Positions 3,095 to 56,729 of a stretch of DNA of 64,000 nucleotides are shown here, in pieces; within the stretch, counting starts at the first letter, position 1; each line of letters begins with the position of its first letter. The DNA is from Marsupella aquatica. Its lineage: Eukaryota > Plantae > Marchantiophyta. The notes under the pieces are model-generated. The model was not told the DNA's origin, did no database searches, and saw only the letters and a list, made by a program, of their open reading frames with translations. The translations under genes and the position numbers were made by a program. Location: contig OZ316892.1 in assembly GCA_973895155.1 (NCBI GenBank), positions 21,639,619-21,703,618 of the forward strand, given 5' to 3'.

Positions 3095-3296
3095 GAGGTT
3101 TTTCTCCATGACAGGAAACAGGAAAACATAACAGTAAAAGAAGATAGGGTTATACTTTAAACATTCGCCATCCATCAATAAAAATAGGGTTCGAGAGAAC
3201 AGTTATAAAACGAAGTTCAAAAGTAAAGCCTGAGAAAAATGGCTCCATGTATTAGTAGGATGTATTATCAGCTAGAAAGGTGAGGTTCAGAAATAC

Positions 3297-7009: not shown

Positions 7010-10000
7010 CTAACTAGTGGAGGGAATGTCAGTATCTTCCACTATAACTACATTAGGTCTATCGTGGACGATGGATCGTGATCGTGGAATGTATGCCATG
7101 ACAATGCACCAATATGAGTCATCTGGATAGGGTAGGTAAAAACATTGTTCAAGGTGATGGGGGAACGCAAAGGGATTTGAGGACCTCCAATTTGAGCTGA
7201 TGACACTATTTGCGGTTGTCTTCAACCGGGTAAAACCGCATGCATCATCTTCACATGTCCAGTTGTGGCCCACAAGATTCATCTTGAACCATTTGCACTT
7301 TAATACCACTTCCTCCAAAGTAGTATGTGCATGGTACTTTATGGTAAGGATTTCCTCAATCTTTCCATAATGGGCGACGGTGGACCGAATGGGATTCCTG
7401 TCTAATGTGCTACTCTGTGAATCCTGGGTGAACCAACCCATCACGCCACAATCTTGTGTAGCTGCCCTCTTCTCATCAAGTCGTTCAACACGAAAATGTC
7501 TCCCCTTGGACCACATGGCTATCCGAGTCGTGACTATAAGTAGTGGACCATGAATCAAGGTACAAAGCTTATCAGTCACCTTTGGGAAGTGTGATATGCT
7601 CTCCCCAATACCCACCAAGGCATCCACTTCTAGCATCTTTGACTTCATGTATGGGTGAAACTTGGGCAATAATCGTGGTCGCCGACTGTTTTTCTTCTCC
7701 TCCTCATAAAATGTTGTCCACTCCCCTACAACCTCTGGTGAATTATACAACATAAATGTTGTGAGCTGCAAACGCTCCGTTGAGCTCAAGAGACGCTCTC
7801 CTGATGCCCCAGTGAGTCTATCATCCTCATAGTCCGCCTCTCGCGCTGCCTTATGTATCCATCCCCTAGGAGCGTTAGGATCTAGTATGGCAACTATGTT
7901 TGTACAATAAAACATACTCTTTGCTCCAAGATGACGCTCTGCGATGCTACCTTCCACCCTAGCGCGATTAGAGACGTACGACTTCATCACCCCCATATAA
8001 CGCTCAACCCAATACATCCATCGACAATGCACTGGGCCTGCAATTGCAACCTCATGCACTAAATGTATGAGAAAATGAACCTGGCCATCAAAGAAAGAGG
8101 GAGGGAGTGCCTTCTCCAACTTACAAATAACCTCTACTCCAAATATCTCCATTGCAGCAATTTCATCCTCCTGTACCTCCTTCTGACATACCCATCTCAA
8201 AAGCTTTCCCAATGACCAAAGGGCATCACGAAGTTCCTCACTACCCAATCCAATAATCGCAACTGGAATGACATGTTCTAGTAACCGATGATAATCATGT
8301 GTTTTCAAGTAAGATGGCCATTTTGGAGAATCATCCCCCCCAAATGCTTTTCGGAGATTTGCGCCATAACCTGTGGGAAACCTCATTGACCCAATACGTC
8401 TGCAAAACTCAGTGCGCTCTGCCCTAGTCAAAACCCAAGGTGGATGGATGCTAGGGGGGTCTCCAGGGGGGTCCAAAGATGGCCAAAAACCAAGAAGACC
8501 ATGCATCCCCATCTCCTCACAACTTTCTCTCCAATTGTGGTTCTTCTCCCCATATAGATGACGAATCAATGACCTCCCCACATTCCCCTCAATGTGCATC
8601 GGATCTAACAAGTGATTAATGGGCATCTCTGACCAATATGGCAACTGTGATAATGCAGACAAATGGGTCATGCCACATCTGAGAAATTGTAATGGATCAT
8701 CTGGGTCTTGAACTCTTTGCCATACCTCTCTCCAATATGCTGGATCCTTTCACTGAGGTTGAGGACGGGTATCAGGTTGGCCCTCATCAGTGTCATACAG
8801 GAAGTGGTCACTCCTCCAAGGATGGTCTGTTGGAAGATATTTGGTATGACCAATGTAAACTATCTTCCACAAAGTAGTTGACTTGCGTCTTGCCACTCCC
8901 TCCAAATCTGGTCCACATGAAGGGCAAGCTCGATAGCCTGATGTTTGCAATCCAGAGATATATCCAAACCCTATGATTGGTCAAGGGACAGCCAGCCAAT
9001 GAAAGAAGGTTAGAGAAAAGAATACAATTTTTAATTAAGTGCAAGATTGATGAAATAGGGTTAAATTAATTGCAAGGTTTACTGTGATTACTTGGTAAAT
9101 CATGCATGGTCCACATAAGAATGGCCTTGAGGGTGAATGCGCGAGATAAACCTCCAGTGTTGCGACGTCCGTCATAACAATCCAAGTCTCCCCTCCAAAG
9201 TTGCAAAAGCTCATCAATCAAAGGTTGCAAGTAGATGTCAATCTTTTTTACTTGCTAAGGACCGGGGATGATCATTGAGAGTAGTAGATGACCTTTCTTC
9301 ATGGCCATCCATGGAGGGATATTGTAGTTTGTTAGAACTACTGGCCATACTGAATATGGTTTTGCTTTACCTGCCAATGCAAAAGGGCTAATACCATCTG
9401 CTACCAATCCAAGTCTCACATGTCGTGGGTCAGTTTTGAACTCACCCCATCTATCCTCTACAAATCGATTGGCAAGAGAGTCAACCATCATTCGCATGGC
9501 ACTGGAGTCTGTACCCATATCAGAACGATGTTGTGAGTGCCATACCATATACTCAGCCAACTCTGCACAACGGTATTGATTTTGCAATCGAGGGATGAGA
9601 GGAAAATACCGCATAACTTTTTGAGGCACCTTCCCTGTCAACATGTCATCACGGTACCGCGGCTTCTCACACTCAGGACATATGATTGCATTTTCATGCT
9701 CACCCCTAAAAAGAATGCAGTCATTTACACATGCATGTATCACTTCATACTTTAGACCAATGGACTTCAACACCTGTTTAGCCTCCTTCCAAGACCTTGG
9801 CATGTTGTTGCCTGGTGGTAAAATGCGATCATGTAGGGTACGAAAAACATCATCCAAAAGTAGGTTGCTGGCCCCATGTCTTTGTTGCACATTCAACAAT
9901 AACATTATTGCTGAGAGCCGAGATAACCTACTCCCCTCAAATATGCGAGTACGAGCATGACGTTGAGCCTCTTCCCATTCCTTCTGCTGGCCCCCCCTAG

Positions 10001-10232
10001 AAGGATGAGTGGTGTTGTCGTCGGTTAAACCCATGTCCTCCATACCAATATCAGCATCATCTTCATAAAATTGGTTCATGAGCCCATCGATGGCCAGCTC
10101 ATCTTCAAGCCGATCTTGGGTAGAGTCATCATCCTCATGTTGTACCTCATTCTCCTCCCCATCATTGGCCACCATGGCCTCAACAAGGTGTTGCCGCATA
10201 GCTCGTGATATTACCCCAATATCAGGCACCAC
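7010..10232 (-). pseudogene. CACTA Tnp2-type transposase (Transposase_21, DUF4218/DUF4216-like regions), spliced and frameshifted
   Basis: Motifs IHACVNDCILFRGE..CPEC, RYFPLIPRLQ, LGLVADGISPF, YSVWPVVLTNYNIPPW, LDPMHIEGNV, LKTHDYHRLL, PPSFFDGQVHFLIHL, GPVHCRWMYWVERYM. Confidence 0.92.
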
Positions 10233-10361
10233 ATATTGATTCTATCATACAACATCAATGCATGCAATCTCATCAACATCAATATTGTGAACAACCAATT
10301 ATCCAATGTTAAAAATGGAAAAGAATCCGATATATATATGTATATATGTAAGTCCAAGAAA

Positions 10362-11652
10362 CTATCTTGGACAGGAACGTAGGGACAATTTTGGTGCATC
10401 CCACTCATAATCACACAATAACTCCTCACCAGCTCTAATGGTCCTAACAGCGACCATCATGATGTGATCATCCATATGTTTCACAAAATATGGAGCTCTA
10501 GGTGGACCAAACATCTGGATCCACTCTACATTAGCCTCCAAATCTCTACCTCTACCCATGGTACTATTGATGTACCCTGCTAAATTACAATTCCGAACAG
10601 GGTCACCATCAATCATCCTACAATGCCACGGCCTAGTGAAGACCTCGTCTGGGTCTGAGTCCATCCTCAATGCGTACACCCCCCAACTTGGGTGTTGACA
10701 CAACAAAATGTTCCAACTCTTAGCGTTGTATACAGCTCCAATGTAAGGGAAAAGGTGCTCTCCATCATAGCCACGTCTCCATGGCTTTGGAGGGACAATA
10801 ATGTCCTCCAAAGCATATAGACCATATCCTATATCAGCACCAATGGAGGAATCTTTCACTATCCAAGAGCGACCCCATATCTCAATCGGTTCATTAATAG
10901 GAATGTAGTCTGGAAATTTGAAGAGACTAGGATCAAAGTCTTTCAAAACGTTGGTTGCCCTACCAGTGAGATAAGATGCTCCAAACCGTCCGTCAACCCC
11001 AATATAATCTACATTGTTGGATGGTCGGGCACTGCCTAACACCTCCTCCCTGTTGTCTACCTGTTCCAGTGGCTCATATTGCCGTCTACGTCTGCGAGAC
11101 CGTGGTCGTGTACATAGGACTCTTGTACACCCAACCTCCGATCCAGAGACCGGTTCACCCTCTACATGCTCAACTATGGGGATAGGAGCAAGGGGGCTAA
11201 GAGGTGGATGGGCAAGGGGGGATGCAAGCAAGTCCCTTGCCCTTGCTAGAAACCCTTCTAGCCACACAACATCATCAACCAAAGGAGGTGGGGGTCTACG
11301 AGGCACCTATTTCAACACACAATAAATTAAGTAGTGTTATTTGAATGCAAGCTAATTATACAATATTTCACCAATTGCCATTTCATGAAATGAAAGGGGG
11401 GATGTATGTATAATTATTTACCTGGCTAGGCAAATAACCTGGCATATCACCCTCATGGCGACCATAGTTCTCAATGTGCTCACAAGTCTCCCAGGCATGT
11501 CGAACCACAAGTCCCTTGCATCTCACACACCAGCAAGGTATGGGCCCTAGTGGAGCACGAGGATGGTCAAGAGGAGGGGGTGGAGGAACCTCCCCCTCGG
11601 ACAAGCTCGTGTCAGAGTCTGAATCCAATGTGGAACTATCGGATGTAGACAT
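10362..11652 (-). CDS. CACTA-borne two-exon ORF: transposase-associated Zn motif (11422-11652) spliced to a SET-domain-like exon (10362-11306)
   Basis: Exon 1 has PCWCVRC...CEHI. Phase-0 GT..AG intron at 11421-11307. Exon 2 has GYGLYALEDI, NLAGYINS..ANVEW and VAVRTIRAGEELLCDY, which match SET motifs. Confidence 0.7.
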
Positions 11653-12822
11653 CTACATACATATCCAATTCAACATGTAAGTTAGATTAAACAACTTCTT
11701 GTGTCGATGTATATACAAACATAATTAAGGAGATTTACATAGAGAGACATTGCCCTACGTACCTCAATGATACCTGCGCTTTGCTGTGCCTATTGGGCTA
11801 TATTCTCGACACACAAAGTGTGGGATATCCAAAATCTCTGCAAGGTGGGCATTTCAATAGTGAGCTAAGTGAAAAAGTGCATGACATGCACACCTCGGCA
11901 AACGATGTGTCAAACTTGCCAAAGTAAACCTCTATGTTACAACTTGAGGAGAATACATGGATGGGCCAAGAAACATCATACCTCTTGGCCGCGCGGTCTA
12001 ACGCTATGCATAGTGCATTATCAAAAAAGACTACCAACCCTCCTCAAAAAAACTAATTAGCCTACCCCTCCATGCCAAAATCAAGGTACTGCACATCATA
12101 TCCAAACACAAACATTAGCCTAACAATGGTTTCACGTTATCATAAGAAAATGTACAACACTATCCTCATAAAAACCCTAAACCAATGTCTCAAGCAAGAC
12201 TATATAAGAATTGCATCATTATAGCCTAACATATTAGGTATGCACAACCAGAGTAAAATTATCCCCCAAAAAATGAAAATCAAGAACAAACCCAAAAAGT
12301 ATCCGTGAAGAAGGAACTAGTATGCACAAGAGTCACATGCACGTCACGGTCACCCTCCCAATGAGGTATGTATCACCCTACATTAAAAAACCTGTCAATT
12401 CAAATGGAAAGAAAATGTTAACACAACCATACCCAACCCAATTTCAAAAAACCCCAAAACTCTAGAATCCATACCCAATTCAACCCAAACTAAACACATT
12501 CCACCCCCTTTGGGAAAGAAAAGGTGCATCCGAAAGAATTCTATAAGGGGCCCGATACTATAAGAAATGGACAAACCTTGGCAAACAAAAGGCAACCCAT
12601 TAACACCGAGGGGTCCGATGTCAAACATATCGGAAGGTCCGATACCAATACCGATGTTCTCGGCTTTGGAAAGTCCGAAGCAATTTGCATCGGACGCAAC
12701 AGGCCAGATTTCAAAAAAGAAGTCCCGACGCTGGTGCGAAGACCTGCGAGTCGGGACAAGCTTCGCACTTGACACTTAGGCTATTGCCGAGGCTGGGAGG
12801 GGAGCTCAAAGGAGGAGGGGAG

Positions 12823-15331
12823 ATGGTGGGAGGCGAATCTGGTGGTGGGGATGGGGCTGGACCTTCTCGGGCATACGATGAGGTGATGAAGGAGATTTTT
12901 GTTGCTAGGGCCGGGTTGAGTGTGGAGGATGCAGCTAGAGTAGTCCCGCTTTTGCAGACCTTGTTTGATGCCTCAAAGATTGAGGCTGAGAAAGCTGTTG
13001 TAGCAGCCATTGCAGCTGCAAAGAAGAAAAAGAAGGAGGCAAAGAGAAGCAAGGCAGATGCAGAGGAGTCTCTCTCTCCTCGAAAACGAGAGAAGAAGCT
13101 TCGGAGGGAGGCTAGGGAAGCTAAGAAGGGGCGAGTAGAGGAGCTCAAGCGAAAGGAAGCAGAGAGAGCTTTGAGGCCTGAGCTACCCCTAAACTCAGGT
13201 GGCTCTCCATTACCCAAGGGCTACAATCTCTTTCGCAGCCAATTCAAACAAGTGGTGCGGGCCAATTTGGGGCCATTAGATTACTGGGGCAAGAAGAAGG
13301 AGGAAGAGAAATCCAGAATTTGAGAGCAAGTGAAAGAACGATTCAAGAACGGGGCACACATTGACGATAGGTTCTTGAACAAGAGGATATCGGCCTCACT
13401 CTCAGACATGCAAAACCATCAAAGAGAGAAATTCAGGAACTACCTTGCTGAGATGCCGATGGATGCAGAGGTGGTCAGGGAGCAGGGCTGTCCAGATGCG
13501 CTTTCCTCAGATGAGTGGGCAGCTTGGCTTGAGGAGGAACTAGCAGTCCGAGCCTGGCTGCAAAAACGTCACTACAATCTTGAAATCAGCCTGGCAGAGG
13601 AGAAGAGGAAAGCTGGAGAGGAAATTGACATCCTCCCTCTCCAACAGATGCTACGACAGTGGCATGCACAAGAGGTAAGACTCCCCAAGCCACCAAAGGA
13701 CATCATAGCAGCTTTGCAACGAGTGCAAGGTCGACCTGTGGTCACTCACCGGATGGGGCAAGGCGGCTCCAATCAACTGAAGGCCAAATTTGTAAGATTC
13801 CTCTCCCTCCTCCCTAGCTCCTCCCCCCGACCACCTGACCTTCTATTGCGAAGAGTGACCGTTTTTTTGCCTCCAAATGCTTTAAACCCTTTGTGGCCCA
13901 ATGGTGTAATTTGCTCTCGGCCCTGTGCTTTCCGATAGGTGTCCGATTCTTTCTGCATTGGACCCGACATTGGACCTCTTGTTATTCATTTTTTGCCACT
14001 AACGTTCCGAGGCAGTTCCGATGCTAAGACAATCGGATGGAGAATCGGACCCCTTGTGGAAAGCTTAATTATCAGGTTTTGTGGCATTTTTAGGGGGCTT
14101 ATAGCAATAGTTTAACTCGGGTATTAGGTTTAGGGGTTTCATGATTGAGTAGCACTTTGTGGAGCTTTTTAAATTAGGGTTAGTTTTGAGAACTAGTTTG
14201 ATTAGGGGTTTATATATAGGGTATAGGATATGTATGGGTATGTGGCCGGGGTCCTATTTTAAATTAGGGTTTACTATGATAACAGTTTTAATGAGGCGTA
14301 TGTAGGGTGTGCATTATGGGGTCCAAGATTGCTTGGTTTCATGCTAATGGGATATTTTGTTTGGGACTGTAAACTGCCAGGAAAGGGAGTGGGGTAGACC
14401 TATTGGGCCATCCGAGAGGGATTTGGCAAAGAGGAATGGACCCCGCGCTCTTAAGCGCCACCTTGAGGATGAGTTGGGAGAGGTTTGTGTTCCCCCTAGG
14501 TTATGAAAATGTTTTTGGTTATGGTGAATTTGTTAGAGTTTTGGAGGCCCTATATAAACAAATTTAACAACAATTTAATCCTAGCTATGTATTGCGTAGG
14601 AGGAGGAGTCAGGATCGGATGAGGAGTCAGGTGGGGCAGGTGATGAGGATGCAGGTGATGAGGATGGTGGTGATGAGGATGGTGGTGATGAGGATGGTGG
14701 TGATGAGGATGCTGGTGATGAGAATGCAGAGGATGCGGCAGGGTTGGTGAGAGTGGCCACGGTTACCCCTATCCCTCATGTTGCCCCCACATCAGCAGAG
14801 GGTGCTGGTTCACATGATGCTGATGGTGTGGGCTCCCATCATTCAGCAGCATCACGGGGTGGTAGGCCCGGGCCGTCAGGGGGAAGTAGAGGTCGTGTGG
14901 GACCAGGCCATCGGTCAGGGGTACATAGTGCACCAGCTGGCCCTCCACGACGAGGGACTAGTGACATACAGGATGGTGGTTCTAGGGGTCGAGCGCCATC
15001 TCGTGAGTCTGGTGGGAGTACAACACGGCACGGGCCAGAGACAGCACATGCAGGTGGAGCATCCCATCACTCGCGTAGGTCTACCGAAGAGGGCTCCTTC
15101 CACTCTGCTGTGTCGGGGGTGGTGGGACATCTGTCTTGCCTGAGCACCATAGTGGTGCATCTAGTGGTTCAGGGTCTAGACCGGCATCAGGCCAACCCAC
15201 GCCATCCACTGAGCAGGTGGCTGCCACGGTTGTGGATAGCCACCAACATGAGGGGTACCTGTACCCCGCCCACGCTCTCGCCCAAAGAAGAAGGGAAGCA
15301 ACACACCTTTTTAGAGGTTTGTGGTACATAG
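12823..15331 (+). pseudogene. CACTA ORF2 (TnpA/Transposase_24-like), divergent from the transposase, with a stop and introns
   Basis: ORFs 12685-13323 and 13330-13938 are in frame across one TGA. CPDALSSDEWAAW and THRMGQGG motifs. Donor GTAAG near 13792. Acidic/low-complexity exon from about 14600. Confidence 0.55.
14630..14730 (+). repeat. 15-bp minisatellite GGTGATGAGGATG(G/C)(T/A) encoding GDEDG/A
   Basis: About 6 tandem units directly visible. Confidence 0.85.
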
Positions 15332-18300
15332 TGTCTGATAGCTTTGATTAGAGGTACCACATAGTGTAGGCCAGTTAGAGCGTCATTTTGGTGTTTCATG
15401 TAGCCGTCACCGGCCCCTATGGCTCTATTGCCTATCTGCTCATTTCATTTTGTACATATTGGGGTGTTCCCCATTGTGAAAACCTGATATTTAATTCAAC
15501 CACTACCTTGCTTTGAGCATGCTCTTTGGACCCTATTTTGTCAATCTCAGCCTGAACCCTAAACCTAAACCCCCAAATGATTCCCATGAATCCAGTATTA
15601 AACCCCCACAAACCCTAAATATCCATTATTAGTCAATCCGGTGACCTAGCTTATATCCGATACCATACGCTACAGAACTTCCAAAGTAAAATATTTTGGA
15701 CCCCTCCTCCCAAATGTCCGATATTTTCAGCATCGCAATTTGCGTTACAAACCACTACGGATGTCCCGATACGTATTGCTATGCAAACTCCGATATGTTT
15801 TACGTCGGACTATCCCATATAAAATACATCGGACCCTTGATATTACCTTGCTGTAGCATCTTAGTATCCGATGAAATTAGAATCGGACACAAATTATCCG
15901 AAACATCCAGTAACGGATGTACCAATTGTTTCAGCAATGAAAAGTCCGATGGATGTCCGATTGTCGATATCCGATGAATGAAGTATGGGAAATTGCGAAG
16001 TAAATCACATTGGACGCCTCATTTTTCCGCGTCAAAATTTCTGAAAAAGTCCGATGTTGTTAGGATCGGAAAAAGGGCCAAAAATGTACTAGTGATGGGA
16101 GTCCCATGGGTGACAGATCGGGGTGGCATCCCCGGGGTCCCCGTGTTGACCTGAGCTTCTCGTAATGATTTACGTACCTCCCTGAGCTTCTTCTCTATGC
16201 TCTTGCTCTTCTCTTGACTCTTCTTGGCTGCATCCAACAGGGGTCCATACTTCCCACCGACTTCCTTCACCACCATCTCAATGGCCCTGGAGATCAAATC
16301 CGGGGAAAGTGTGGAGCTAGGTGTGCAGGGTCTCTTCCGTTTCCCCAGACTCAAGGCCTCACTCCTCTTAGTCCTTGTCTCAAAGATCACCATTTGACTC
16401 CGTAGTGCTCCCACCTGGGCTCTTAACTCCACCACTTCTCCAGAATTCTGCTTCTCTTTGGCCAATGCCTGTTTCAATACTCCAACCTCTTCCGCTTCCT
16501 TGGCCTTGGTGGACAAGGCTCCCTTCAAGTTGGAGATCTCTACGTGAGCTGCTTAGAGAAGTTTAACCTTCTCATGAATGGCCTCCTCCTTGGCCTTGAT
16601 CACCTCCTTCATAGACAGGGCACTCTGCTCCAAAGTCTCTACTCTGGCGGTGGCCTGCTTGAGAGAACCTCTCAATGCGTGGACTAGCTTGAGTCCCTCA
16701 TGGACTCCCTCCCGGAATTCCCGTAACTCTGCCAGGTAGACATCAAGAATGTCGTAGACCAGGGGCTCCTCCGGATCTCCCACAAGTGATTCAAGCCACT
16801 CCAATGTGGAGTCCTCATCCTGGTTTTCTTCCTCTCTATTATCATCCCCAACCGTTGACGATGATCCCTCCGTTAGTTTCCCCACGATGGTAGTGGCAAT
16901 ACTCCTGATTTCCGTGGTAAGGGATGATCCAGAGTCTTCTTGTCCCGGGGAAACAATCCACCCTTCTGCTCTGGCCAGAAAAAATGACCCCATCAAGTGT
17001 GCAGCCCCACCTGGTTTCACACTCCCGGGATCTGCGTCCAATAGCTTCTTCAACCCATAGTACCACCATCCGTACACATGGGCTGGATAGTTCTTGATGT
17101 CCATAGCTACCACAAAATGCTCTCCATTCACCACCCCGGATTGCACGTTACCTAGGACCCGTTGATGAACCTTGGCCAGAAATCCCTTGTGCTCAGCATC
17201 CTTGACGGCGGAAAGAGGAATGGAAGTAGTGGAGGTGGGATTAATTACCCAACCGGCCACCATTGTCAACGTGAGTTCTCCCCTTATGTTCCGAGGTGTG
17301 AATGAGAATTGCTGGTTCTCCAGAAATAGAAGCTTACCTAACTCCACATGGGGCACTACCCGTTGGAGACATTCAAAGTAGATTCCTTCCGTACGTAACT
17401 CCATCCCGGCCTCAATGTTCCAACTCTTCCCCGAAGGGATTGTAATCTCCACCTTCATGAACTCCGTGAGCCCGATGGCTTGAAAAATATTCCTACAATC
17501 CTCCATCACCTTGGCGGAGGTTTTGGGATAAATTTGACAAAAAACCCTCCTACTCACTGGTGCAGAACTTGCCGCCAGTCCAGTACTCATTGTAGTTTCT
17601 CTCTCTTTTCTCTCTCTTGCAATCAAAGTCTCAACGTAGTCATGGTAAGTAGCCTTGTATCTTCGAATGTGTGCCGCACTAAACTCCTATTGATCCAGCA
17701 TCCATGCATCCAGAAATCAAATCCTCAATCACCAAATCCCGTCACCCGTAGCAATGTCAATTCCCTGGCCTGAAACGGCCCCTGTATCATGATCAATCAA
17801 TTACCCTCAATTCCCTCAGAAGCCACTCCGTGCTGCTGCCGCCAATGCCTGGAAGAATCATGCCAACAAGCCCCAACAATTGACCATGAGAAAGAGCTTC
17901 CAGAATAATTGTAAAATGTGGAGAGAGCTTTCGGCAATGAGAGAAATTGCTTTCGGCAGAGTAAGAAGTCGCGCAAAGAGAAGGGAGGGAGAAAAAAAAT
18001 GAATACAAAGGAAAGGGAAGTAAACCCCTTTCTTCACCCTCCTCATCAATTTTTTTTCTCCCGGCTCCCCTCACGCCATGCGCCCTGGCTCGTGGCCCTA
18101 TGAAGGGCTCGCGTATGCCGACACGCGGCCCTCCTCACCTACCGTCCCCGCACCTCACTGCAGGTGCCCAGTCCTCCAAGGTTGGGGGAATTTAATTCCC
18201 CCCCTTTCCTCGCAGCCCCTCATGCGGGCCCTTCCCACGGGAGCTTAATTGCCCCCCCCCACTCCGCGACCTTCTCCTCCTGGCGCCGGCCGCGGCCCGG

Positions 18301-19463
18301 TTGCGCTGTGCCCCGGCTTGCCTCGCGCCCCGGCTCGCGCCCTCTAGCTCACGGCGCCCTCCCTATGCAAGGGGCTGGGTCTCCCGGCGCCACCTGGTTA
18401 CTCGCGGGACATGCTCGGCTCGCCCCATGCCAGGCCACTTTAAGGGGCATTTAATCCCTCCCGCAGCCTCCTTCATCGACGGCCTCCGTAGCGCTCTGCT
18501 ACCCCGGCCTCCTCACATAGTACTCACGGTGCCCCATAATGGGGAATTTTAATTCCCCCCCCCCCAAGGCTCTTTTTACAAGGGGGTCTCAACGATAGCT
18601 CAAGCAAAATGGTAAGTCCTATGGGGTTGGCCCTAGCGCTTTTTAAGGTCCCAAAATATTTTCCCGCTTAGGTCACCGCAAATCTTAGAACTGTTACGAG
18701 AGAAAGAATATAAAGTCACCCGGGGCATCATCAACCTACAATGGTGGAATTAACTAAAAAAAATTAAAAATGGCTTATTTACAGTGGCTATTAACAAGGC
18801 ACACCCCTCTGCAACCCATTATTTGTGGTTTCAAGTGACGGGGACCCCGTCACAATTAGGTCTTAGCTGTGGTCCTGACAGGAGACCCCCTCTTCTCATT
18901 TGCTACTGCTATTCTCTCCAGACTTGCTGATTTTGGTTTGTCTTGGTGACGGCTTCTTTTGTACCCCTTGGGTTCCCCCCCCCCCAAGGGGGGGTTGTCT
19001 TGTTTTGCCGTGTGGCTTGTTTGCCCTGCCCGTGGGGTTTTTCGTGGGCTAAAACTATTTATAAATAAAAAATCAATTCCAAGGAGTAGCGCCTGGCGCT
19101 ACTCCAAAAAAAGGTGTCACAGAATCCAAAACATCTAGGAGGTCGGGTAAGAACAAACTAATCCCCAAGACACTCGTTGTCATTGACATACAACTCGGTC
19201 TATACTAAACAAAGTCCGAGAAACAAATCCGACTAGTGAGTGTCATTGTGGAATAAAAGCTATGCAAGGTGACGATACCTCTTACAACTTTAAACTCCAG
19301 AATATGTAGAGATGTCGCGAACAGTGAATCAACTTAACAACTAAAAAGTTGTATCCTACAAACTGAACATCCCGAACAAACAAAATCCTATCTCCTTTGT
19401 TCTTAATAGCGATAGCGCCGAGCGCTATCTATCACGAGAGTGTGCAAAAAGACTTCCTAAAGA

Positions 19464-19934
19464 TCAGGATATCGACGATCCACACTCATCATCGAGTCTT
19501 GCATTGAACCGATCTTCATCTTGATGAAATCCATCCTCCCGCTTAGCAAAAAAACGCGGCCCTGGAAGGCGACTCCTAAGCTTGCAATTCGGTATGTTCG
19601 AATCAGAGAATCCAACTCGCCCAGTCCACTGTTGAATGTCCCTACAAAATTGCATCCTTCCAACCCCATAGTGATCAGAAGGGTCCGGATCGTGAATAGA
19701 GAAACGCTCTCAAAAATACCGGGGAGGCGATAAATGAGCAGAAGGAATAGATTTTGATCGGAAACTTATCCCCTCGTCGGAGGCTAGCCACAGTTGATTC
19801 CGCTCAGTCGATGTCTCAGAGTGAGTAGTATCTTCAATTGGGAAGTTCGGAAACAGATCACCATCCGATGCTTTGCCCTCAAACTTCACGAGGCGGGAAG
19901 TCCTCTCTTGTTTCACCTGCTTCCCTTTGTCCAT
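19464..19934 (-). pseudogene. ORF3 of Mutator-like copy 1 (156 codons, one internal stop), unknown function
   Basis: MDKGKQ...ETSTERN..DEGIS...PPRYF*ERFSIH...GRVGF. Same length as, and alignable to, 56730-57200. Confidence 0.6.
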
Positions 19935-20360
19935 GGTCACTACACGAATGACTTTTTGTCTCTCAAAGGACTTGACACCAAAAAGCGCAAATGGCAAAGG
20001 CCTCCAAGAGCTCCTACAAATTGTCGAAAGGAGAGGGACGAAAGGGGAGAGTCTAAATGAAATGACTAACGATGCAGTTTTGAGCAAGAGAAAAAGTTTC
20101 CGTTTCATCACGCATACAGAGAAAACGCCAGTCCATTGAGATCAATGAGTACCACAGGCAATGACATTACGGAAGGGAAACAAACACTTGTACGGGTACT
20201 TCCGTTGAATTAAGTATTTCAGTACATTTGTCCTCCTGAAAGAATATACGGAACATCATACATTGCCCACCTTGTCTTAATCCAGCTTCACGTCATATGA
20301 ATAATAAGTAGCGTCGGGTGCTACTATTTTGGAGGGGAGAATTGACCAAACGGTGAAACT

Positions 20361-20420
20361 CTAATCTAATCTAATCTAATCTAATCTAATCTAATCTAAT
20401 CTAATCTAATCTAAGCTAAT
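20361..20420. repeat. (CTAAT)n microsatellite just downstream of the ParB-MTase stop codon
   Basis: 10 perfect units at 20361-20410 plus degenerate units. Confidence 0.95.
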
Positions 20421-20425
20421 CAAAT

Positions 20426-23400
20426 TTAATCTGCACACTCTGACCCACTACTCTTCGATCTATCTGTAGACTCTGCTTCATCGTCTACAAATTCATTCCG
20501 TGCCATGTCGTCGACAAAAGGATGATGGATAAACTTCCGATCCGAACCTCGTCTCAATTGCAAGCCTTTATTCTCCCAAGTCAGGGTTCTCCTGCTCTCT
20601 TCTTTGTGAGCGGCATACTCGGCGTAGGAAGGCAATACAAATGGTTTCTCCGGGGTAATGAGAACCTTCCTTGAAAATTTCCTTCGTAGGTGAAACCTCT
20701 CGCAAACATTCCACTCGGACCTGCGAGTTGGTTAGAACACTAAGTACGTGGCTTTAATTGATGTGTCTAAAACAAAACAAAGAAAACAAATAGTAAAGTA
20801 ATGTGAAGGAGCTTACGGGCATTACTCTGAGGAATCTGAATCATCTATTTCTCCTTCTGCATTCCCCTCTTCCTTCTTCTCTTCTACATTATCTACATCT
20901 TCACCACCATCCACATCACCAACATCGGCTTCTTCTTCTTTGGAATCAAAATTCAGAACATAACAAACTTTGTCCTTAACTTTTTTCCCCTGGTCTTTGC
21001 TCGGACCAGCCTCATTCACTTCTTTGGGGAGAAGAAGATCAGAACGTCTTTTCAGCAATGGACACAAATTCCTTGCGATTTTCAATCCCAAGAATGAAAT
21101 GGCCACAGAAGTCACCCGCAACAAATGTGCTCCCAGAACCAACCGTCCAATCCATAACAATATCTCCCGGATGCGTAATTAACTCAAGGACAGACTGCAT
21201 GAAGCCGATAGGCAGACGAGCATTCCCAGCAAATGCACCTTCAGGAGAAGGATCATTCTTGAGACTTTGCAATCCAATGAGATTCGTGATTGAAGGGTCT
21301 TCAGTTACAGACAAAGGCTTGAACTTTACATCCTTTGGAACCCTGACTTTCGATGTAACCCGACTGAAGATGTCAAGTCTTAAGGTGAAAACCTGTGAAG
21401 TAAGTAAGAAAAATGAGATATATAACAAGGGACATGGGTAGCGCCTGGCGCTACCAAAAAACCAGACGAAAAATAAAGACTTTAACCCTAAACTCAATAT
21501 TGTGAAATTGAATATATGACTAGCGCCAAGCGCTAGCCAAAAAGGTAATCAATGATGAGGATAATTACCTGACAATCGCTTTTGGCCATGTACATTGGGA
21601 CGCCCATTACAACATTGAGTGTTTTTAGGCACTGGAACTTCTGGGACTCTTGGCTTGCGGAAATAACTTGGGAGATCTGGTCGTACTCCCCAGTGTGCAA
21701 AACTGCTAACAATCCATCATCGGCTAGAAATGGGTCCATGGCCCAAAAAAAGGAACCTACAATTTGGTGATCCGGGACATTCCACTTTGGCGACTTCCGG
21801 TGAAGCAAAGAAGGTCTTAGCCCCGTTGGTAAATACACAAACCCCGCATCTACCCCAAACGCTCTTAACTTCCCTCCCCTTACAACGCCTTTCTCGCGGA
21901 GACCAAGTGCCACTAAGTCTTTCCCCCACTTTTCAATAGTCATCACCCATGCGGGTTTGGTCTCATTTGTAAACACAGATTCAAAAAAGTCCATAACACT
22001 GGACTCAACAAACTTATGACGTCTAACCTTTGAATTGAATCGACCAACTTCTCGTTGGACCCCGGTGGACGCAATCGAACCAAGATCGTGGTTCTTCTTC
22101 TTCTTTTTCCTTGTGCTCGTGGCATCAATAGGACGAGATACGTTGGCATTGGTTGGAGGAGTTTGTTCTTCCGAGGCGTCAGCAGCCTCCGTGTTTGCTT
22201 CGGAGAGCTCTGGGGTGATGGTCGTCTTTGCATCTTGCGTTTCTTCTCCCTCTGATTTTCTTCCCCCTGTAAAAAGTATGAATAGAAATTAATTAAGGAA
22301 ACTATACCAGCGCCTGGCGCTAGCCATCCAGTGTATCCATAAATTGGAACAGAATTATGAGTATCTATCTAACATTTCAAAGTAGCGCTTGGCGCTAACC
22401 AAAACTATGAAAAAAACCAGAAGAACAATAAGTTGAACATCTTACGTTTTCTTCCAGATTGTGTCGACGGGCTATTCAATCCTGTATCCATTTTTACTTT
22501 CGCGCGTGGCTTTCGGCTTCGGTCAACATGTGTGACTTCTGTCTCGCAAATTTTTTGAAGCTCAACCGCTGAAGCTTCCACATCTCCCACTAAACCTTCC
22601 TTCATTTCTGACAGCAATTTGCAAGGAACTAGAGATTTGGACAATTTCAGAAAGGAGTCTTTCTCAAATTCATCAAAAGGTGTATCCCACTTATCAGTAT
22701 CAAGGTACCACAGACACTTTGCTCTCTCCCACTCAGAAAGGTCATGCAGAGGGTTGGTTCCATCTGTCAGATACATACAATAAACCTCGCTGAATGCATC
22801 CCCATCCATGACAGACCACTTCTGGAATGCAGGAGGGTAAGCCCAGAAGTATTCAGGCGAAACGCTCTCCATGGACATGAAGAACCGATAAAGATATCTC
22901 TTTGCCCCGCTTCTGGTTTCATGTAGTGAAATCTCTTTCTCCCCATACTTTGAAGCCCACATTGTGTTGAAGAACTTGGCCTTCACAATATCTCCGTAAA
23001 TTCTGAAATCATTACAAACGCTCTGGACCAAACCATCAAAAGTATCTACTCCTCCTGTCACAAGTTGTTCGGGAGGCATGATCGATTCAACTTGCCTGAG
23101 AGCAGTCTGCAACATCCCTATTGCAATTCCTTCTATCCAACTCCACATGTGCCATGTATGACACCATTGCTTCACAGGTTCGTCATTCACACTAGGTGGA
23201 TGGAAAAATTGTTTTCGAAGTTCAGGTGTGCAATGTGCCACAAGAAGAGTAGAACGCAACTTTGGATCCAAAGTGGAGACAGCAGTGAAGAGTCGAGCAC
23301 AATCCATTGTACAAACAACGGACTTTGCTTTCTGTTCCCGCTTGTTCTTTTCTGTAAGAGTGTACATTTCTGCACAAGTTGACAGAAAATCATTGAATTC

Positions 23401-24602
23401 AGGACTTAGGAGAGGAGTAATCTTTGAGGTCTTCACGCTCCATTCCTTCGTGGCCTCCTTCATCATCGCTGCGTGACGCTTAGCGACCTCCTCCTTTGAC
23501 CATGGCCTTCCTTGAGAGTTTGCGGTTGCCATGTCCATTTTGAACTGGAGAGAGTATGACTTGATCTTGTTCTCACACAAGATGTAAACAAGAGCCTCCA
23601 AAGGCATCTTCTTGGTATACCAAGCGCCTTTCCTTGTCTTCGCTTGAATCGCCTCGAATCGTTTGAAGCTTCCTGTGTCAATGATCGCCTTATAATAATC
23701 AAGGTCATGGGACAGAATTTGATTGATTCGATTTGCATCCAAGATCCATGATGATTCTACCACCGCTTGTCCCAATCTGAAACCAAACGGAAGTCATCAG
23801 CACCAGGCACTAGCCAAACATCGACAAAAATATTCATTCTTTTTGACATTCAATGAAAGAAAATGATGGAACTTACTGATTGACTGTGTGCATTGCAGCC
23901 TCAATCTCGATGAGAGAGCCTCGATCTCCCTTGAATACAGTGCAAAGCACACGAGGATGGTACTTGATATTTTTGGGGTTTTCATCCGTGATCTGTAACC
24001 AAGAATAGAGACGATGATTCCCGTCAAATACACAAAACATCTTGTCTTTTAAGACAAGAAACTCGGGATCCACTTCGCAATCCGCTTCAAATTTCTCATT
24101 CTGGGAAACCCATACAACATCCCAACTCTCACGAATTTTGGGTATGCAAAATTGGATAACCCCTTCAGAATCAGCGGGTTGCACATAGAACCGCATCCCT
24201 ATGGAGGAGTTGTAACCGGAACTCCGAAATGAATCTTTGAGCTTCTTGATCGAAGCACTCTCCTTCTGCAAAGTCTGAACGACTTCCATGTTGACTAAGC
24301 GGCAAAGCGGTATATGGGGGGGATTCTTAGGCTCTCCTCTGAAATCAGTCCCAAATGACATCGCATGTTTCGCAATCACATCACCCATCGACAGAGCCCC
24401 TTCGCTTCTGTCCTCCATCACGAAATCGCTGAAATTCTCCATGGCTCCTTGTTTCTGCAGATGAGTGCAAAGCACTGTAGACTATTTGCCCAATATGTCA
24501 AAGCGACTGCGATGCAGTTGAGCGTGTAACTCTCCAAGTGTAAACAGAACCAGAGAATGAAGTCTCGGATGTCTCAAAATTATCGGGAGAAGTATTGTCC
24601 AT
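20426..24602 (-). pseudogene. 5-exon ParB/Srx-like + helical region + N6A/N4C DNA-methyltransferase-like fusion gene (copy 1, a few lesions)
   Basis: VFDGNHRL near 24010-24030. VDAGFVYLPTGL (motif-IV position) near 21830. PFLADDGLLAVL and LITHPGDIVMDWTVGSGSTFVAG..GHFILGIE (motifs X/I/II) near 21080-21180. GT-AG introns at 23876-23777, 22445-22267, 21568-21393 and 20816-20721, all conserved in copy 2. Confidence 0.75.
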
Positions 24603-25316
24603 CTCTGGATAAAGAGTAGAAGGCGATAAGGTTTGGAATGTTCTTAGCCAATCGTAGAGGTCTGCAACGTTATCCTGCGACCGGATAGATGAGCTCCACG
24701 TCGCAAACAGACAACACGGAGCACGTTCTTTCCCGGAAGACAGAGAGGACAGCGAATCTCAAAACATGATCGGACCTGTCGAATTGGCCTTTCACATGTA
24801 AAAGATCCATCAAAGACCGTCGATCAACTTAAATATTTACTTTTCATGATGAAAAGAAACAGCAAAAAGAGCGACGACACCAATAAGAAAGAGACACATG
24901 TCACATGTTCTAAATGGTCATGATGAACAGAACCAAAATTATCTAAATGACGTCTCTAAATCTTTGCCACTTTAGGGATAAAATGGTCACTAAGATATGA
25001 AGTTACCATTATAAATATCCGTTGGGTCACAACAGCGGACAAGTCTGTATAATAGCGCCTGGCGCTATTATAGAAATTACACCTAAATCACCATTAAGTT
25101 TCATACATTTCCATAATCACGCTGGGAGATATTAAGGGCCCTTACCATAAAAATAAGCCCATAACATAATAGCGCCCGGTGCTATTATTAAATCATTTAT
25201 GAAATGTCATTTCATTCCCTAAATACAACAATGGTCGTAAATTTCTTCGCTTTTTTGACACGTAAATATGTATTATTAATGATAGCGCCAAGCGCTATCA
25301 ATGTTGTGGGTAAATA

Positions 25317-25629
25317 GGGGTATTTACAAACGACAGGAAACAGCAAACAATAACAAAAAAAACTGGTAATAGGAAAATGAGTGGTAATTTTTTTTGAATT
25401 TTTTTTTTTCAAATTTTTTTTTTTTGCTAGCGCCCGACGCTGGTAATGCTAGCGCCCAAAGCTAGCCAAAAAATGTTGTAACTTAGATTTTTTTGGAAAA
25501 TGAGACTTTTTAGAAAATATTTTGACATGATTATTTTTCCTGGTAACAGTAACTTTTTGCTGGTAACAAGAAAAATTTTCCTGGTACCAGTAAACCTGTT
25601 TCCTGTTTACTGTCACGCGTGCCATACCC
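25317..25629. mobile_element. 313-bp MITE of the same Mutator-like family, nested in the copy-1 intergenic region
   Basis: Ends GGGGTATTTACAAACGACAGGAAACAG and (reverse complement) GGGTATGGCACGCGTGACAG match the copy-2 termini. 9-bp TSD GGGTAAATA at 25308-25316 and 25630-25638. Contains two palindrome copies. Confidence 0.85.
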
Positions 25630-25938
25630 GGGTAAATATATCTCTCATCTCGTCATATTTTTGCGTTCATCTCCACCTATTGTGTGGCATGAAAAAAGAG
25701 ATTTTTGCTAGCGCTTGGCGCTACTAATATCCATTGCTGAAGATGCCGTTAAACTAACGGAAACATTTTGCTTCCAACGGTCATCCGCCGCCATTCTTTG
25801 GTCACTTTTCCGTGGCATCAACGGTAATTAAATTGGAATTCAAATTGTCATATGGTGGTTTCTTTGTTGAAGTTTCTTAGAAGCAGTGAAATAAGAAACT
25901 AAAACTATCACGACACTCTCATTTTACCATTGTGGTCA

Positions 25939-28900
25939 ATGATATTCCGCAATGCAGCATGTAATTAGAGTAAGTCGTCCGGCGATAGGTGAGGTGATTA
26001 CCGTACCTGTGACCAATCGACCAGGTACTCAATGCGTTAGTGAGAATTATCTTTCCGCAAGATTTGATGTCTGGAGGAAGGATATTGATAATTGACAGCT
26101 CATTTCCATTACAGTCAAGGAGAGAAATTTTGGGAGTTGCATATTGGTGTCGATTACTCTCTATACCTCAAAGGAAAAGATGATGTTCGTGTTAAATTAG
26201 AGAAGGTAATTGCACCGAGGGAAGTCATCGATCTCACATCTGAAGGCGAGGACTCATTCCTTGGATCTCCTTTTTTGATGAATGTTGGAAACATTAAGAG
26301 AGAAGAATCGGTTCCAGTACATCAGGGGAGCTCGTCGAAGGAACGGGTTCCTCCTTTTTTTCCATGATTGAACAAAACAATTAGTGGATCTGATACACTT
26401 CTTTTAGCTTTGCCTCTAACTGTCGTCTATAGGCAAAGCGCGTTAGATGCACTTTTGAAATCATATGGACAAAGTGAGCTTTCTCGCTTTGTTAAATCGG
26501 AGGTTTCACGCACGAGCAAGTGGAATTGCTTCCCATAAGTTATAATGGCAATGTCATATTTGAGCTTCCACCTGTTGATTGTGTTGGTTCAAAAGGAAAG
26601 CGTCTCCTTAACATGGACCGGTCAAAGGATTGCTATCTATGGACTAGAATTTTCCCCACTTCAGCCAATGTCTTACCCTAAGAAGATGTGGGAGTTTGGC
26701 AAGGTTAGTTGTAGCGGGTCACTAGAATGTCGGAACAATTCATGCGAGTTTTATATCAGAACCAATGGTAGGAATTGTTCATCTTGGGAAGGGACCCCTA
26801 AGTTAGGAGGTCAACATTGTCCAGGAAAGTTGATTGATGCAGGAGGGATTGTTTGTCGTTATTGTCTGCAGCTCCCATTTTTTCTGGACTCTTGCCCCAC
26901 AAAAATGTTCTACATGTACCCGCAAGTCATGCTTGATTCGGTGACAGTGCAACATATGTCACGCCTCGCAATCCACATGGGTGTACATGATCATCCATGT
27001 CGAAAGATTTGGTCTAGAAGTTCAGAGAAAATAGCGGTCGAGGAGATTCGAAAAGAGCACTTGAAGAATCCTTCTTCCGCGCCTTGTGTTGTGAAAAATG
27101 CAGTGACTGGATCTTTGAAGGATGCACTAGATGAATCTGTTCATGACATTTCAAAGATGGAAGAGACTGAGATTTGGCAGTCACTTATGCTTGTTTCCAC
27201 TCCACAGAAATTCTCTGCCTTGTTTAAGAGCGTCCGGAAAGATCAGGCTGGTCGTGGAGATCTTGAATATCTGGTTCGAATGCAAAAGAATGTGAGGTTT
27301 CCATTTGTTCAAAGGTATCTTCTTCCGGGGCAAGGCTGCAAGGAGGACCGTGCTCATATTTTCAAAATGACAATCAAAGGTCATGGATCCGGAGTCAATC
27401 TACTTCGACAGATGAAAAAAGGTGGGCCACTTGAAGGAGCATGGGTGAGTTTTGATGTCATGCATCGAATGTCTAAAGAATGGAGCACTTTCAGTGCCCA
27501 CGTCTATGACCACAACTATCGAGCATTATGTACGATATTTACGTGCGAGCTGAAAGCGAAGGACACTGAATCTCTTGAGAAAGTTTGGAGATTGATGATT
27601 GAGGTCGCTTTAGAAAATGGGTTACATGATGTTCAAATTCACGGATTCATGGCTGACAATGCTCATGCGGGATGGCTTGCGGTGAGAAATGTTTTCTTTG
27701 GGGGCCATCCAAATCCAGAGAAGGAGAGATCAGACGCTTTTCATTTTTACCAATCTTTGCATTGCCATTCCATCGAAGGAGTGTTGGAAGACAAACGTGC
27801 AGAGCATCGAACCCTTTGGGATAAGCTCAGAAATGCATCAACTTTTGTTGAAGCCTATAGAATCTCCAGAGAGATTGATTTATGGTGGAGATCCGGAAAT
27901 TGCGTTCCTGGAAAGCTTTGGATGCTGCAAGGATTGATCTCTTGGTGGGTTGTAAGATGGCGACAGTGGGGAAATTTTATCAGACTTGTGAGTATGACAT
28001 TGACATGGCCTTTTCATTTTTCAATATCTCATATACTTCTAAACTAGCGCCGAGTGCTCGTTCCTAGTTCGAGAACGGATGTTGATTTGTGCCATATTGA
28101 TCTTCTCAGGAAAATTATCAACATTGATTCTCAAATCAAAAGGAGTAGGGCTGGAGGCCACGCTTTGGTCTCGTGAGAGGATTACAACACCCTGTTCTTC
28201 AAGGAAACTTATCTCCAAGTTTGACAGATTTGTTCCTTTCAGTATTGGCAAGGACACTAGATAAGGAGGCAGGTTTGCTATACCTCGACGCGGGCGACTC
28301 TTCTACCAATTGCCGTTGGGGCAGAACCACACAAACTCTGCATGAGGTTCTCCTCTGAATAGGCGATGTGCTTTGACAACAACTTCGATGACACCAGCAT
28401 TGGAAGGATATCCAACCTTCTTAATCCGATTTTGACACTCATCACAATCGCATCTCCCTGACAATGTCCCGTTACACTATGGGCCGGGCCCAAGTCTTGA
28501 AATTCGACAAAGATGCCAAGAACCGGGATCAACGTCCATCTCCAAAAGCGACGTGTCAGGGACGACTGGATTTTGGTTAAAAGAGACTTCTGGTAATATT
28601 GAAGATGCTCCACCTCGACCAGAAGGAGGTGCATCCTGCATGTCACCCGGGTCTTCTTCACTCCCAGTCAAATCGATCGGTGTTTCAGGAGTTCTAAGTG
28701 GAATATGAGAAAACTGAGTAGAGCTCAGATTTCTCCGTTTCAAACCCCGTGTATTTGGTGTTGTTATCAGAATTGTGACAGATTTGGTTACAAAATCACC
28801 GTTCAATGGAGAACTCCTCTCCAAATCGAATTCCGCCGCATTAGCTAGTAGAAAATTAGAAGCCTCTTTGAACAATCGAGGGGACCCAGCCTGATCTGCA

Positions 28901-29574
28901 GAACGGAAAGCTAGTTCAAAAACCGTAGGACCTGTACCTCTATGTAACCCATCACGATAGGCAGTATAGGCGGCAATTTGGGAGATTGCTCGATTGTGGT
29001 TAGTTTTGCACCCCTCAAATAAACCTACAGTTTTCTTCCCTTGCCAAGCTTTCATGATACCATGAACTGCCTCAGATCCTGTGCAATTGGGAATCATCCC
29101 TCCTTCTTGTGCACTTTTGCTCTGTAGGACGGCGAGGGTCCGTCTCGAACTAGGAACGGACGCCCAATGAACCCCAGATCAAATCTTACTCAGGAATATC
29201 ATAGAAGGATTGAATCTGCTGCTAAGGAAATGATGACTCTCATCACAGAATTGGACGTCTCCTTAGGGAACTCTTATGGGAAACGATTCCGCATCCAAAC
29301 ACACGCTCATTTGAGGACGGCAAACACTTACTGAGTGCAGATTTGCATATTCTCATGCTGCTCTTGTGAGGATTTGTTTCGTCGGCATTCTCAAGGAAGA
29401 CCTTTCATGCCTTGTAAGCATTTGTACTGGGTTTACAAAACGGTCTTTAAGCTAGATCCATTGGATTCGATGTTACCAAGCCAACCAATTCTTACTATCA
29501 GTGAACTCCAGTACATCTTAGGAATGAAGAATAGCATGGTTTTTAGGAATTCTGACCATTCTAGTAGACGTTGA
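25939..29574 (+). pseudogene. GCM-like Zn domain / MULE-type DDE / SWIM transposase (copy 1), frameshifted, exon 2 partly inverted
   Basis: C..SLEC..NSC...CRYC...C...HMGVHDHP (GCM/WRKY-like). SFDVMH, FMADNAHAGWLAVRNVF, DAFHFYQ and NCTGSEAVHG (MULE D-D-xxH-E pattern). CSCEDLF...PCKHLYWV (SWIM). Confidence 0.8.
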
Positions 29575-29835
29575 ACGGGTATTTAGTCAATGATGTTTTG
29601 TAACGGTAACAAACGTTTGGGTAGCGCTCGGCGCTAGTAAACGTGTCTTCCGACAATTGTTGTTTTTCCCATCATATTGGACTTCATGTTGAAATTGACC
29701 TCATTGGTTTTGTAGAGAATTGTGCCGTGTTTTGTGGATGATAGTACCAATTCTCCTGTTTTGTTCCACTCTTTTTCCTGTTATGATCATTATTGTTTCC
29801 TGTTTCCTGTCATGGAGGTTGGGCCCTTCAATCGG

Positions 29836-47811: not shown

Positions 47812-48069
47812 GGAGACCCGAGCCAGCAGAGCAGCCCCGAGTCTCCCCCACCAGATGTCGCTCCCCCGAGCTTTGACGGCATAAAACAAACGGCGCAGGA
47901 ATTTCAGGAGCAAATCAGGGAGGAAGAGGAGGCAGCCCTGGCTAGGGAAAAGGATTTACCAGGAGGAGAATGGCCAGAGGACATCAGGCGGCTTGCAGAA
48001 AAACGAAGCATCCCTCCAGCCACAATAGAAGGAATCCGCAAGGCGGCTTGGGAGCACAAGCCACGGTGG

Positions 48070-56565: not shown

Positions 56566-56728
56566 GTCGATAAAGGTGCTGACCTTGTCGATAAAGGTGT
56601 GGACATTGTCGATAAAGGTGCAGACATTGTCGATCTGGTTGCGCACTTTAAGGCAAGGTGAGAACGTTGTCGAGCTGGGTGCGGACCTTAAGGCCAGGTG
56701 CGGACGTTGTCAAGCTGTGTGCGGACCA
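56566..56728 (+). repeat. Degenerating 19-21-bp tandem repeat (GTCGATAAAGGTG.GGAC.TT) upstream of ORF3
   Basis: About 8 units visible. Confidence 0.8.
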
Positions 56729-56729
56729 C

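Follow-up and report, generated by a model that had tools for sequence, protein, structure and literature searches.

A degenerate beta-class methyltransferase fold in a predicted transposon accessory protein of the liverwort Marsupella aquatica

The 64,000-nucleotide stretch of the Marsupella aquatica (Marchantiophyta) genome analysed here (contig OZ316892.1 of assembly GCA_973895155.1, positions 21,639,619 to 21,703,618 of the forward strand; hereafter the window, in whose numbering all coordinates are given) carries two diverged copies of a Mutator-like element, in each of which an accessory gene stands head to head with a transposase gene on the opposite strand. The initial annotation had drawn attention to three motifs of the accessory gene, YLPT, FL(A/S)DDG and DWTVGSG, in a methyltransferase-like domain placed at 21060..21860, and had proposed that YLPT takes the place of the catalytic motif IV, (D/S/N)PP(Y/F), of beta-class amino-methyltransferases. 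All three motifs are present as written in both copies (in copy 1, on the minus strand, YLPTG at 21835-21821 with YLPT itself at 21824..21835, FLADDG at 21730-21713 and DWTVGSG at 21152-21132; in copy 2, on the plus strand, YLPTG at 54545-54559, FLSDDG at 54650-54667 and DWTVGSG at 55141-55161). In copy 1 they lie inside the span first given for the domain, which itself begins some 170 nt earlier, near 22030.

In-silico splicing resolves the accessory gene into five exons and four introns, with the introns at the same places in both copies. The predicted protein consists, from N- to C-terminus, of a weakly assigned ParB-like part, an unmatched middle, a beta-class N4/N6-methyltransferase fold and a conserved tail. 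In copy 1, on the minus strand, exon 1 (24442-23877) encodes the weakly assigned ParB/Srx-like domain with its DGNHR motif; exon 2 (23776-22446) a conserved stretch of approximately 443 amino acids (aa) without a family match; exon 3 (22266-21569) a basic/acidic linker and the N-terminal, motif IV half of the methyltransferase fold, with YLPT and FL(A/S)DDG; exon 4 (21392-20826) the motif X/I/II half (GNARL, DWTVGSG, GIENR) and an acidic linker; and exon 5 (20720-20426) a conserved C-terminal domain that aligns across both copies and with protein P0045 of the liverwort Calypogeia fissa. The GT-AG introns measure 100, 179, 176 and 105 nt in copy 1 and 95, 201, 89 and 108 nt in copy 2, the third of them (phase 0; 21568-21393 in copy 1, 54812-54900 in copy 2) parting the motif IV half from the motif I half. 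Once spliced, copy 1 has 982 open codons (DGNHR at codon 140, YLPT at 777, FLADDG at 812, GNARL at 921, DWTVGSG at 946 and GIENR at 967), and its frame ends at codon 983 through a 2-nt frameshift near 21040, directly past the methyltransferase domain, that is absent from related-copy contigs in two of four sequencing runs. Copy 2 of the gene (51900..55875, plus strand, start approximate; YLPT at 54545-54556) has several stops and frameshifts, and both copies in the window are thus damaged. Support for the gene model comes from three annotated spliced proteins of C. fissa (P0009, P0018 and P0045) that join the same parts; the end of exon 2 is common to P0045, and C. fissa was the only organism named among 30 looked-up matches (five of them) and seven further rows. 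Exon 2 gave no match in scans of Pfam, PHROGs or NCBIfam, and differs between the window copies at proportions of 0.30 of nonsynonymous (pN) and 0.78 of synonymous (pS) sites. Homologues of greater length were sought by word-based searches, which are weak evidence on this point, and none was returned. At the loci fetched from viral, metagenome and prokaryotic contigs, no counterpart of exons 1, 2, 3 or 5 or of the transposase was found, the scans yielding canonical prokaryotic methylases or unrelated genes.

The transposase genes (copy 1, 26500..29571, plus strand; copy 2, 42351..45700, minus strand and frameshifted; all bounds approximate) encode proteins with what we take to be a zinc-finger N-terminus and D-D-E-like catalytic motifs, followed by a SWIM-like C-terminus. 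Their Cys/His and acidic motifs are kept between the two copies, and neither a Pfam MULE nor a GCM match nor any other significant Pfam match was obtained (SWIM in copy 2 at an expectation value, E, of 0.053, below cut-off). Mutator-type transposases have been described with a WRKY-GCM1, transposase and SWIM layout (PMC1702500). Relative to copy 2, the copy 1 transposase bears an internal inversion at 28060-29140, the ends of which are joined on opposite strands in related contigs. Element copy 1 spans 3097..29826, with nested insertions at approximately 3270-19050 and the target duplication TTCAATCGG(A); copy 2 spans 41647..58034, with the target duplication AAAAATGAG; and a 313-bp non-autonomous derivative, a miniature inverted-repeat transposable element (MITE; 25317..25629), has the same termini, the target duplication GGGTAAATA and two degenerate palindromes. 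The element ends are short, imperfect terminal inverted repeats starting with G, with GACAGGAAACAG-type repeats. These inverted ends and the 9-10 bp target site duplications at all three insertions led us to call the element Mutator-like, duplications of 8-11 bp being a Mutator trait (PMC6446971). At 80% identity or more, each of the four runs has from 1033 to 2953 contig pieces that match element copy 1, which makes the element family multi-copy; the window itself may derive from one of these runs. Its MITE is probably very abundant, since in all four runs 25317-25629 exceeds the rest of an 11-kb region by a wide margin in summed contig depth, with many different flanks; contigs with the corresponding empty site, lacking the 313-bp MITE, were found in three of the four.

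Evidence for the methyltransferase fold differs between its two halves. The motif I half matched PF01555 above the curated cut-off in copy 1 (E 6e-8) and below it in copy 2 (E 0.0066), matched M1.HpyAVI (2e-6), CcrM and MboIIA among PDB sequences, and aligned by hhalign with a profile of 17 prokaryotic beta-class domains at an E of 3e-8. The motif IV half alone found no match in Pfam, PDB sequences, PHROGs or NCBIfam, so that its identity rests on structure and register. No useful ESM Atlas match was returned by the exon 3 piece alone, and a sub-threshold Pfam match in the copy 2 exon 3 open reading frame (ORF; E 0.079) was treated as chance. The Atlas's own model of Calypogeia P0018, built without the alignments of this analysis and with a mean predicted local distance difference test (pLDDT) score of 0.50, matched PF01555 clusters in all ten of the rows listed, over approximately residues 1-260 (template modelling score 0.56-0.60 by query, 201-223 residues aligned). 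An AlphaFold model computed from an alignment of 24 family and 14 prokaryotic methyltransferase rows was confident (pLDDT 76, predicted template modelling score 0.72) and close to CcrM (E 1e-10; Z 17.7, root-mean-square deviation 3.1, 199 aligned), as well as to MboIIA (Z 17.2), N4CMT (16.0), PvuII (15.2) and RsrI (14.5-14.7), the last two being structures that the initial annotation had named for comparison. As modelled, the accessory protein would contain a circularly permuted Rossmann fold with motif IV ahead of motif I, and the beta-class motif order read earlier from the letters is thus borne out by both the PF01555 and the structural matches. A special tie to N4-cytosine (N4C) enzymes, which had also been suggested, did not emerge: the closest solved matches by sequence are N6-adenine (N6A) enzymes, and N6A and N4C structures lie within approximately 2.5 Z of each other. 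For the motif I half, a phylogenetic tree built from 18 rows (14 of them prokaryotic) and 68 columns shows a long branch and resolves no donor among the prokaryotic rows.

Several results weigh against the fold assignment. The confident AlphaFold model leans to the methylase fold because of the 14 prokaryotic methyltransferases in its alignment. A model computed from the family only folded confidently in its N-half only, gave no Foldseek match, and reached a Z of 4.5 against MboIIA 3-104, at rank 13 and below unrelated Rossmann folds.

In both AlphaFold models the first residue of the YLPT motif (F185 in the family-only model, F52 in the confident one) ends the catalytic strand and is followed by a helix and a strand. 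Structural alignments start at model residue 40 on RsrI 53 and on TTHA0409 35; read without gaps, they place F52 on RsrI 65 and TTHA0409 47, the first residue of motif IV by ungapped profile. A family-only profile aligned by hhalign sets FVYLPTG on CIADPPYN and FLADDG on VKPNGN, and a MAFFT alignment likewise places YLPT on DPPY. When a family-only matrix was run along 17 prokaryotic enzymes (approximately 250 positions each), the DPPY register ranked first in five, among the top three in 11 and among the top five in 15. Two of these results also count on the other side: the hhalign match is weak (E 0.063), and without its proline column the matrix places the register among the top three in only 3 of 17 enzymes, so that it is largely carried by the proline. 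The tests are each modest, yet they agree, hhalign, MAFFT, structure and matrix all aligning YLPT with DPPY. On the modelled fold, YLPT very probably occupies the motif IV position, as the initial annotation had supposed.

What the family has made of this position was examined with a profile search of 1.84 billion representatives, which returned 40 matches to the motif IV half. Coincidentally, 40 rows were also aligned: 36 of these matches, two further proteins and the two window exons, with P0023 and P0040, which do not span the motif, and P0037 and P0038, which by eye read ALPT and SMGA, left out. None of the 40 rows carries (D/N/S)PP(Y/F). The first position is Y in 12 rows, A in 12, F in eight, C in three, S in three, R in one and T in one; the second is L in 34 and the third, equivalent to the second proline of DPPY, is P in 38; the fourth is T in 29, N in six and another residue in five, and never Y, F or W. 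The accessory gene reading frame has no (D/S/N)PP(Y/F/W) in either copy, the sole such word in the gene span (24312-24323) being out of frame. The SPPY of match P0039 was rejected as a motif IV, since it sits in the unaligned N-terminus, the aligned motif of this protein reading STPT.

In motif IV of N4CMT and CcrM, a hydrogen bond joins the first residue to the target amine, the aromatic residue at the fourth place stacks on the target base, and the cofactor pocket is lined by the second proline (PMC10406627); changing the SPPY of N4CMT to APPA abolishes its activity (PMC8885841). As the first and fourth residues are lost here and the second proline alone is kept, amino-methyl transfer has probably been lost too. 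Judging from these substitutions, we consider it likely that the accessory protein carries out no N4 or N6 methylation. Between the window copies, exon 3 differs at a pN of 0.25 and a pS of 0.74 over 168 codons, with silent sites near saturation and a ratio of nonsynonymous to synonymous substitution rates (dN/dS) of approximately 0.09, and exon 4 at a pN of 0.19 and a pS of 0.78 over 117 codons. Among 42 related contig pieces that cover the motif, five of the six listed changes in YLPT codons are silent, the sixth, Thr to Met, occurring in three contigs. The loss of the two catalytic side chains is family-wide, under purifying selection, and not a product of decay. The surmise of the initial annotation that the domain may be catalytically dead or repurposed is supported as a probable reading, and neither of the two observations that were to contradict it was made: YLPT does align with DPPY, and none of the 40 aligned rows has a canonical motif. 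The stops and frameshifts in both window copies might lead one to regard YLPT as neutral decay of a dead gene, or as a chance resemblance; this is extremely unlikely, being contradicted by the recurrence of the motif in copies with saturated silent sites, in 38 database homologues and in related contigs.

The cofactor side of the fold is partly preserved. The aspartate and glycines of motif I (D-x-x-x-G-x-G) and the glutamate of motif II are kept, whereas Thr or Ser replaces the motif I phenylalanine in six of six sequences and GxAR[LM] the HPxxKP of motif X in five of five, with loss of its histidine. The persistence of several residues of the S-adenosylmethionine (SAM) pocket counts against an inactive protein, since some methyltransferase activity may survive. 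It would also suit a scaffold or reader that directs a mark to the element, either by pairing with an active enzyme, in the manner of METTL14 and METTL3, or by binding SAM or a modified base; METTL14 provides the precedent of an inactive partner within the same permuted class (PMC4738411), and the cofactor-side proline is retained with the motif I and II residues. ORF and Pfam scans of both elements, however, disclosed no encoded active partner, the base-stacking aromatic is gone from 40 of 40 rows, and the N4CMT cofactor contacts of motifs I and X are those replaced in all sequences compared, making such a role quite unlikely.

The non-coding DNA of the elements is marked by a 15-bp palindrome, TAGCGCCNGGCGCTA, present in the window at 7, 18 and 27 sites with 0, at most one and at most two mismatches, respectively; at the last threshold, each of 30 Markov simulations of the window gave no site. 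All 27 sites belong to the two elements and the MITE, where they fall in introns or in intergenic or subterminal stretches, and none (at most two mismatches) in the exons, nested insertions or flanking DNA of the window. Intron 3 of copy 1 has two (at 21439 and 21521; 21439..21535) and intron 2 another two (22308..22397), the latter with counterparts at the same places in copy 2 (53930 and 54034). Every one of the 54 half-sites keeps the AGC of its arm unchanged. Conservation within the palindrome is lowest at the CCNGG centre, which is intact at 13 of the 27 sites and has been lost from the other 14 through C-to-T changes in each case. Such conserved arms, with presumed decay at host-methylated cytosines, make the palindrome a candidate dimer-binding site. 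A hairpin or cruciform reading was discarded, since beyond the consensus common to the sites the flanks showed no significant symmetry (P 0.057). In viral contigs (85 stretches, of which 80 were retrieved) the palindrome is almost always single, and its occurrence there was taken as chance; one GC-rich viral contig (L109, 3001-4326) holds two exact palindromes 1.3 kb apart with extended symmetric flanks, and has no match to exons 1, 2, 3 or 5 or to the transposase.

The initial annotation had likened CCNGG to the targets of N4C methyltransferases, a suggestion that sits poorly with a centre so often lost between invariant arms. Its fuller form is an active methyltransferase which, working through a non-canonical site, would mark the palindrome (for instance with N4-methylcytosine, 4mC, in CCNGG) and so shield the element. 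The whole beta fold, the strong purifying selection, the Ser found at the first motif position in 3 of 40 rows and the algal relatives by architecture that are predicted to make 4mC or N6-methyladenine (6mA) speak for this. Variation among Y, A, F, C, S, R and T is not, however, that of a catalytic residue; N4CMT loses its activity through the equivalent double change (PMC8885841); and the C-to-T losses in CCNGG are those expected of the decay of host 5-methylcytosine. An active enzyme is therefore distinctly improbable.

The reading that we consider the best, and to which we give about an even chance, is that of a pseudo-methyltransferase within a self-binding accessory protein resembling VANC of Arabidopsis VANDAL transposons. 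The accessory protein would bind the non-coding palindromes of its own element through its ParB-linked N-terminal part, the DNA-binding loops of the pseudo-methyltransferase, or both, and, once bound, would help to keep the element active without methylating DNA. We hold it to be slightly favoured that the palindromes are bound by a dimer of the accessory protein through these parts, and not by the transposase, dimerisation being suggested by analogy with its class. The outcome, by analogy with VANC, may be anti-silencing or activation, although this is put forward tentatively. In CcrM, the loop that follows motif IV reads DNA (PMC10406627); the corresponding loop is well conserved in the accessory protein family, and the pseudo-methyltransferase itself could thus be the palindrome binder.

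The N-terminal part is a weak point of this proposal. The assignment of exon 1 as a ParB/Srx-like domain stems from a match to the ParB-like PHROG 1033 (E 0.045) and from the likeness of DGNHR to what we take to be a ParB/Srx motif; hhalign lent it no support (E 0.41), and no ParB/Srx match was found among PDB or phage sequences. A more elaborate variant, in which a ParB-like clamp loads at parS-like intron palindromes and spreads along the element, host CG/CHG methylation being barred by a dead methyltransferase bound to DNA or SAM, is rather unlikely; if true, a bacterial or phage ParB-methylase gene would have been made into a non-catalytic anti-silencing machine, and the element would represent a second, independently built VANC-like system.

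The main competing explanation assigns the palindromes to the transposase as its binding sites and gives the pseudo-enzyme another task, perhaps in integration or target selection, on the model of mudrB. Cognate copies are activated by the AtMu1 transposase, which binds motifs also present in its non-autonomous relatives (10.64898/2026.08.24.746577), and the MITE retains two palindromes, both of which tell against binding by the accessory protein, as may the zinc-finger N-terminus that the transposase presumably has. AtMu1 binds at terminal repeats, however, whereas most of the sites described here are internal and some lie in accessory-gene introns at conserved places, and we regard this explanation as a whole as unlikely.

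The self-binding, VANC-like interpretation gains from comparison with published systems. A short motif found in the introns and in the intergenic and terminal non-coding DNA of VANDAL21 is bound by the element's own VANC21, which causes hypomethylation (PMC5735166). Both VANC and the present gene are accessory genes of Mutator-like elements in whose cognate non-coding DNA a short motif has accumulated; the likeness rests on site distribution, VANC motifs being 8-9 bp long and in tandem repeats and the palindrome 15 bp long and dispersed. By architecture, the closest counterparts are algal, a likeness that the initial annotation did not mention, nor did it describe the gene as a transposon accessory gene. 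The accessory protein of Sola1-1_Ec32 in Ectocarpus (1104 aa, compared with approximately 1150 codons here) combines ParB-like and N4/N6-methyltransferase domains (PMC12477816), and in the Plavaka and Mutator elements of red algae a PF01555-SET gene and a ParB-oxygenase gene adjoin inverted-repeat arrays (10.1101/2025.02.11.637652). Like the present gene, the algal accessory genes (Sola1-1_Ec32; PAG2/PAG3) lie on the strand opposite a DNA transposase, encode ParB-like (weak here) and methylase domains, with PF01555 named for PAG2, and belong to elements containing inverted repeats for which self-binding is proposed. The host element here is a land-plant Mutator-like one, and the palindromes are dispersed in introns and not gathered in tandem arrays; published accounts present the algal proteins as predicted methylases, while the catalytic motif of the present family is degenerate throughout.

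With prokaryotic beta-class amino-methyltransferases (CcrM, M.MboIIA, M1.HpyAVI, M.RsrI, M.PvuII and phage ParB-methylase fusions) the family shares the fold, the order of motif IV before motif I, the D-x-x-x-G-x-G loop and the motif II acidic residue, and departs from them in reading [YAF]LP[TN] at motif IV, GxAR[LM] for HPxxKP and Thr/Ser for the motif I Phe. Bdelloid N4CMT and Marchantia DN4MT1 also represent a eukaryotic beta-class N4/N6-methyltransferase fold of bacterial origin. They are active host enzymes with SPPY and TSPPY (10.1101/2021.02.12.428880 for DN4MT1), whereas the present protein is transposon-borne, multi-domain and devoid of the motif, TSPPY occurring in none of the 40 matches to the motif IV half. 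Retention of a methyltransferase fold after catalytic loss has been described for METTL14 and for the N6A-methyltransferase domains of DIRS1 retrotransposons (PMC4738411). The latter are likewise transposon-borne and belong to a different, PCIF1-derived clade within a retrotransposon polyprotein, METTL14 being a host MT-A70 subunit. C5 methyltransferases in retrotransposons offer a further parallel (PMC5890265).

The remainder of the window contains other coding features. A CACTA element with Tnp2 and DUF4218 ORFs (CACTAGTA...TACTAGTG, 3-bp duplication ATG) is nested at 6275-16093, and its SET-domain ORF at 10362-11306 (Pfam SET, E 8.5e-6) makes it another transposon with a chromatin-modifying accessory domain. 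Long coiled-coil-rich ORFs at 46105-49482 and 16019-17686, nested in the two elements and matching none of the Pfam families scanned, are probably accessory genes of other inserted elements. Between the two elements lies an uninterrupted phospholipase/carboxylesterase ORF (32033-32716; PF02230, E 4e-50), perhaps a retrocopy or a host gene without introns, and minus-strand exon-like ORFs at 35320-36841 resemble what we take to be a YTH-domain gene. Three related decayed coding repeats (1028-1916, 58364-58712 and 59585-60479) are found outside the elements.

Accessory genes that join ParB and methylase domains have thus already been reported from algal transposons; what is new is a land-plant gene whose methylase is probably disarmed, no land-plant member or catalytically degenerate version having been found in the literature outside subscription journals. 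For a land plant, the locus puts forward one candidate protein together with a precisely defined candidate site. The retention of the methylase fold without its catalytic motif calls into question the assumption that accessory proteins of this kind work by writing 4mC or 6mA.

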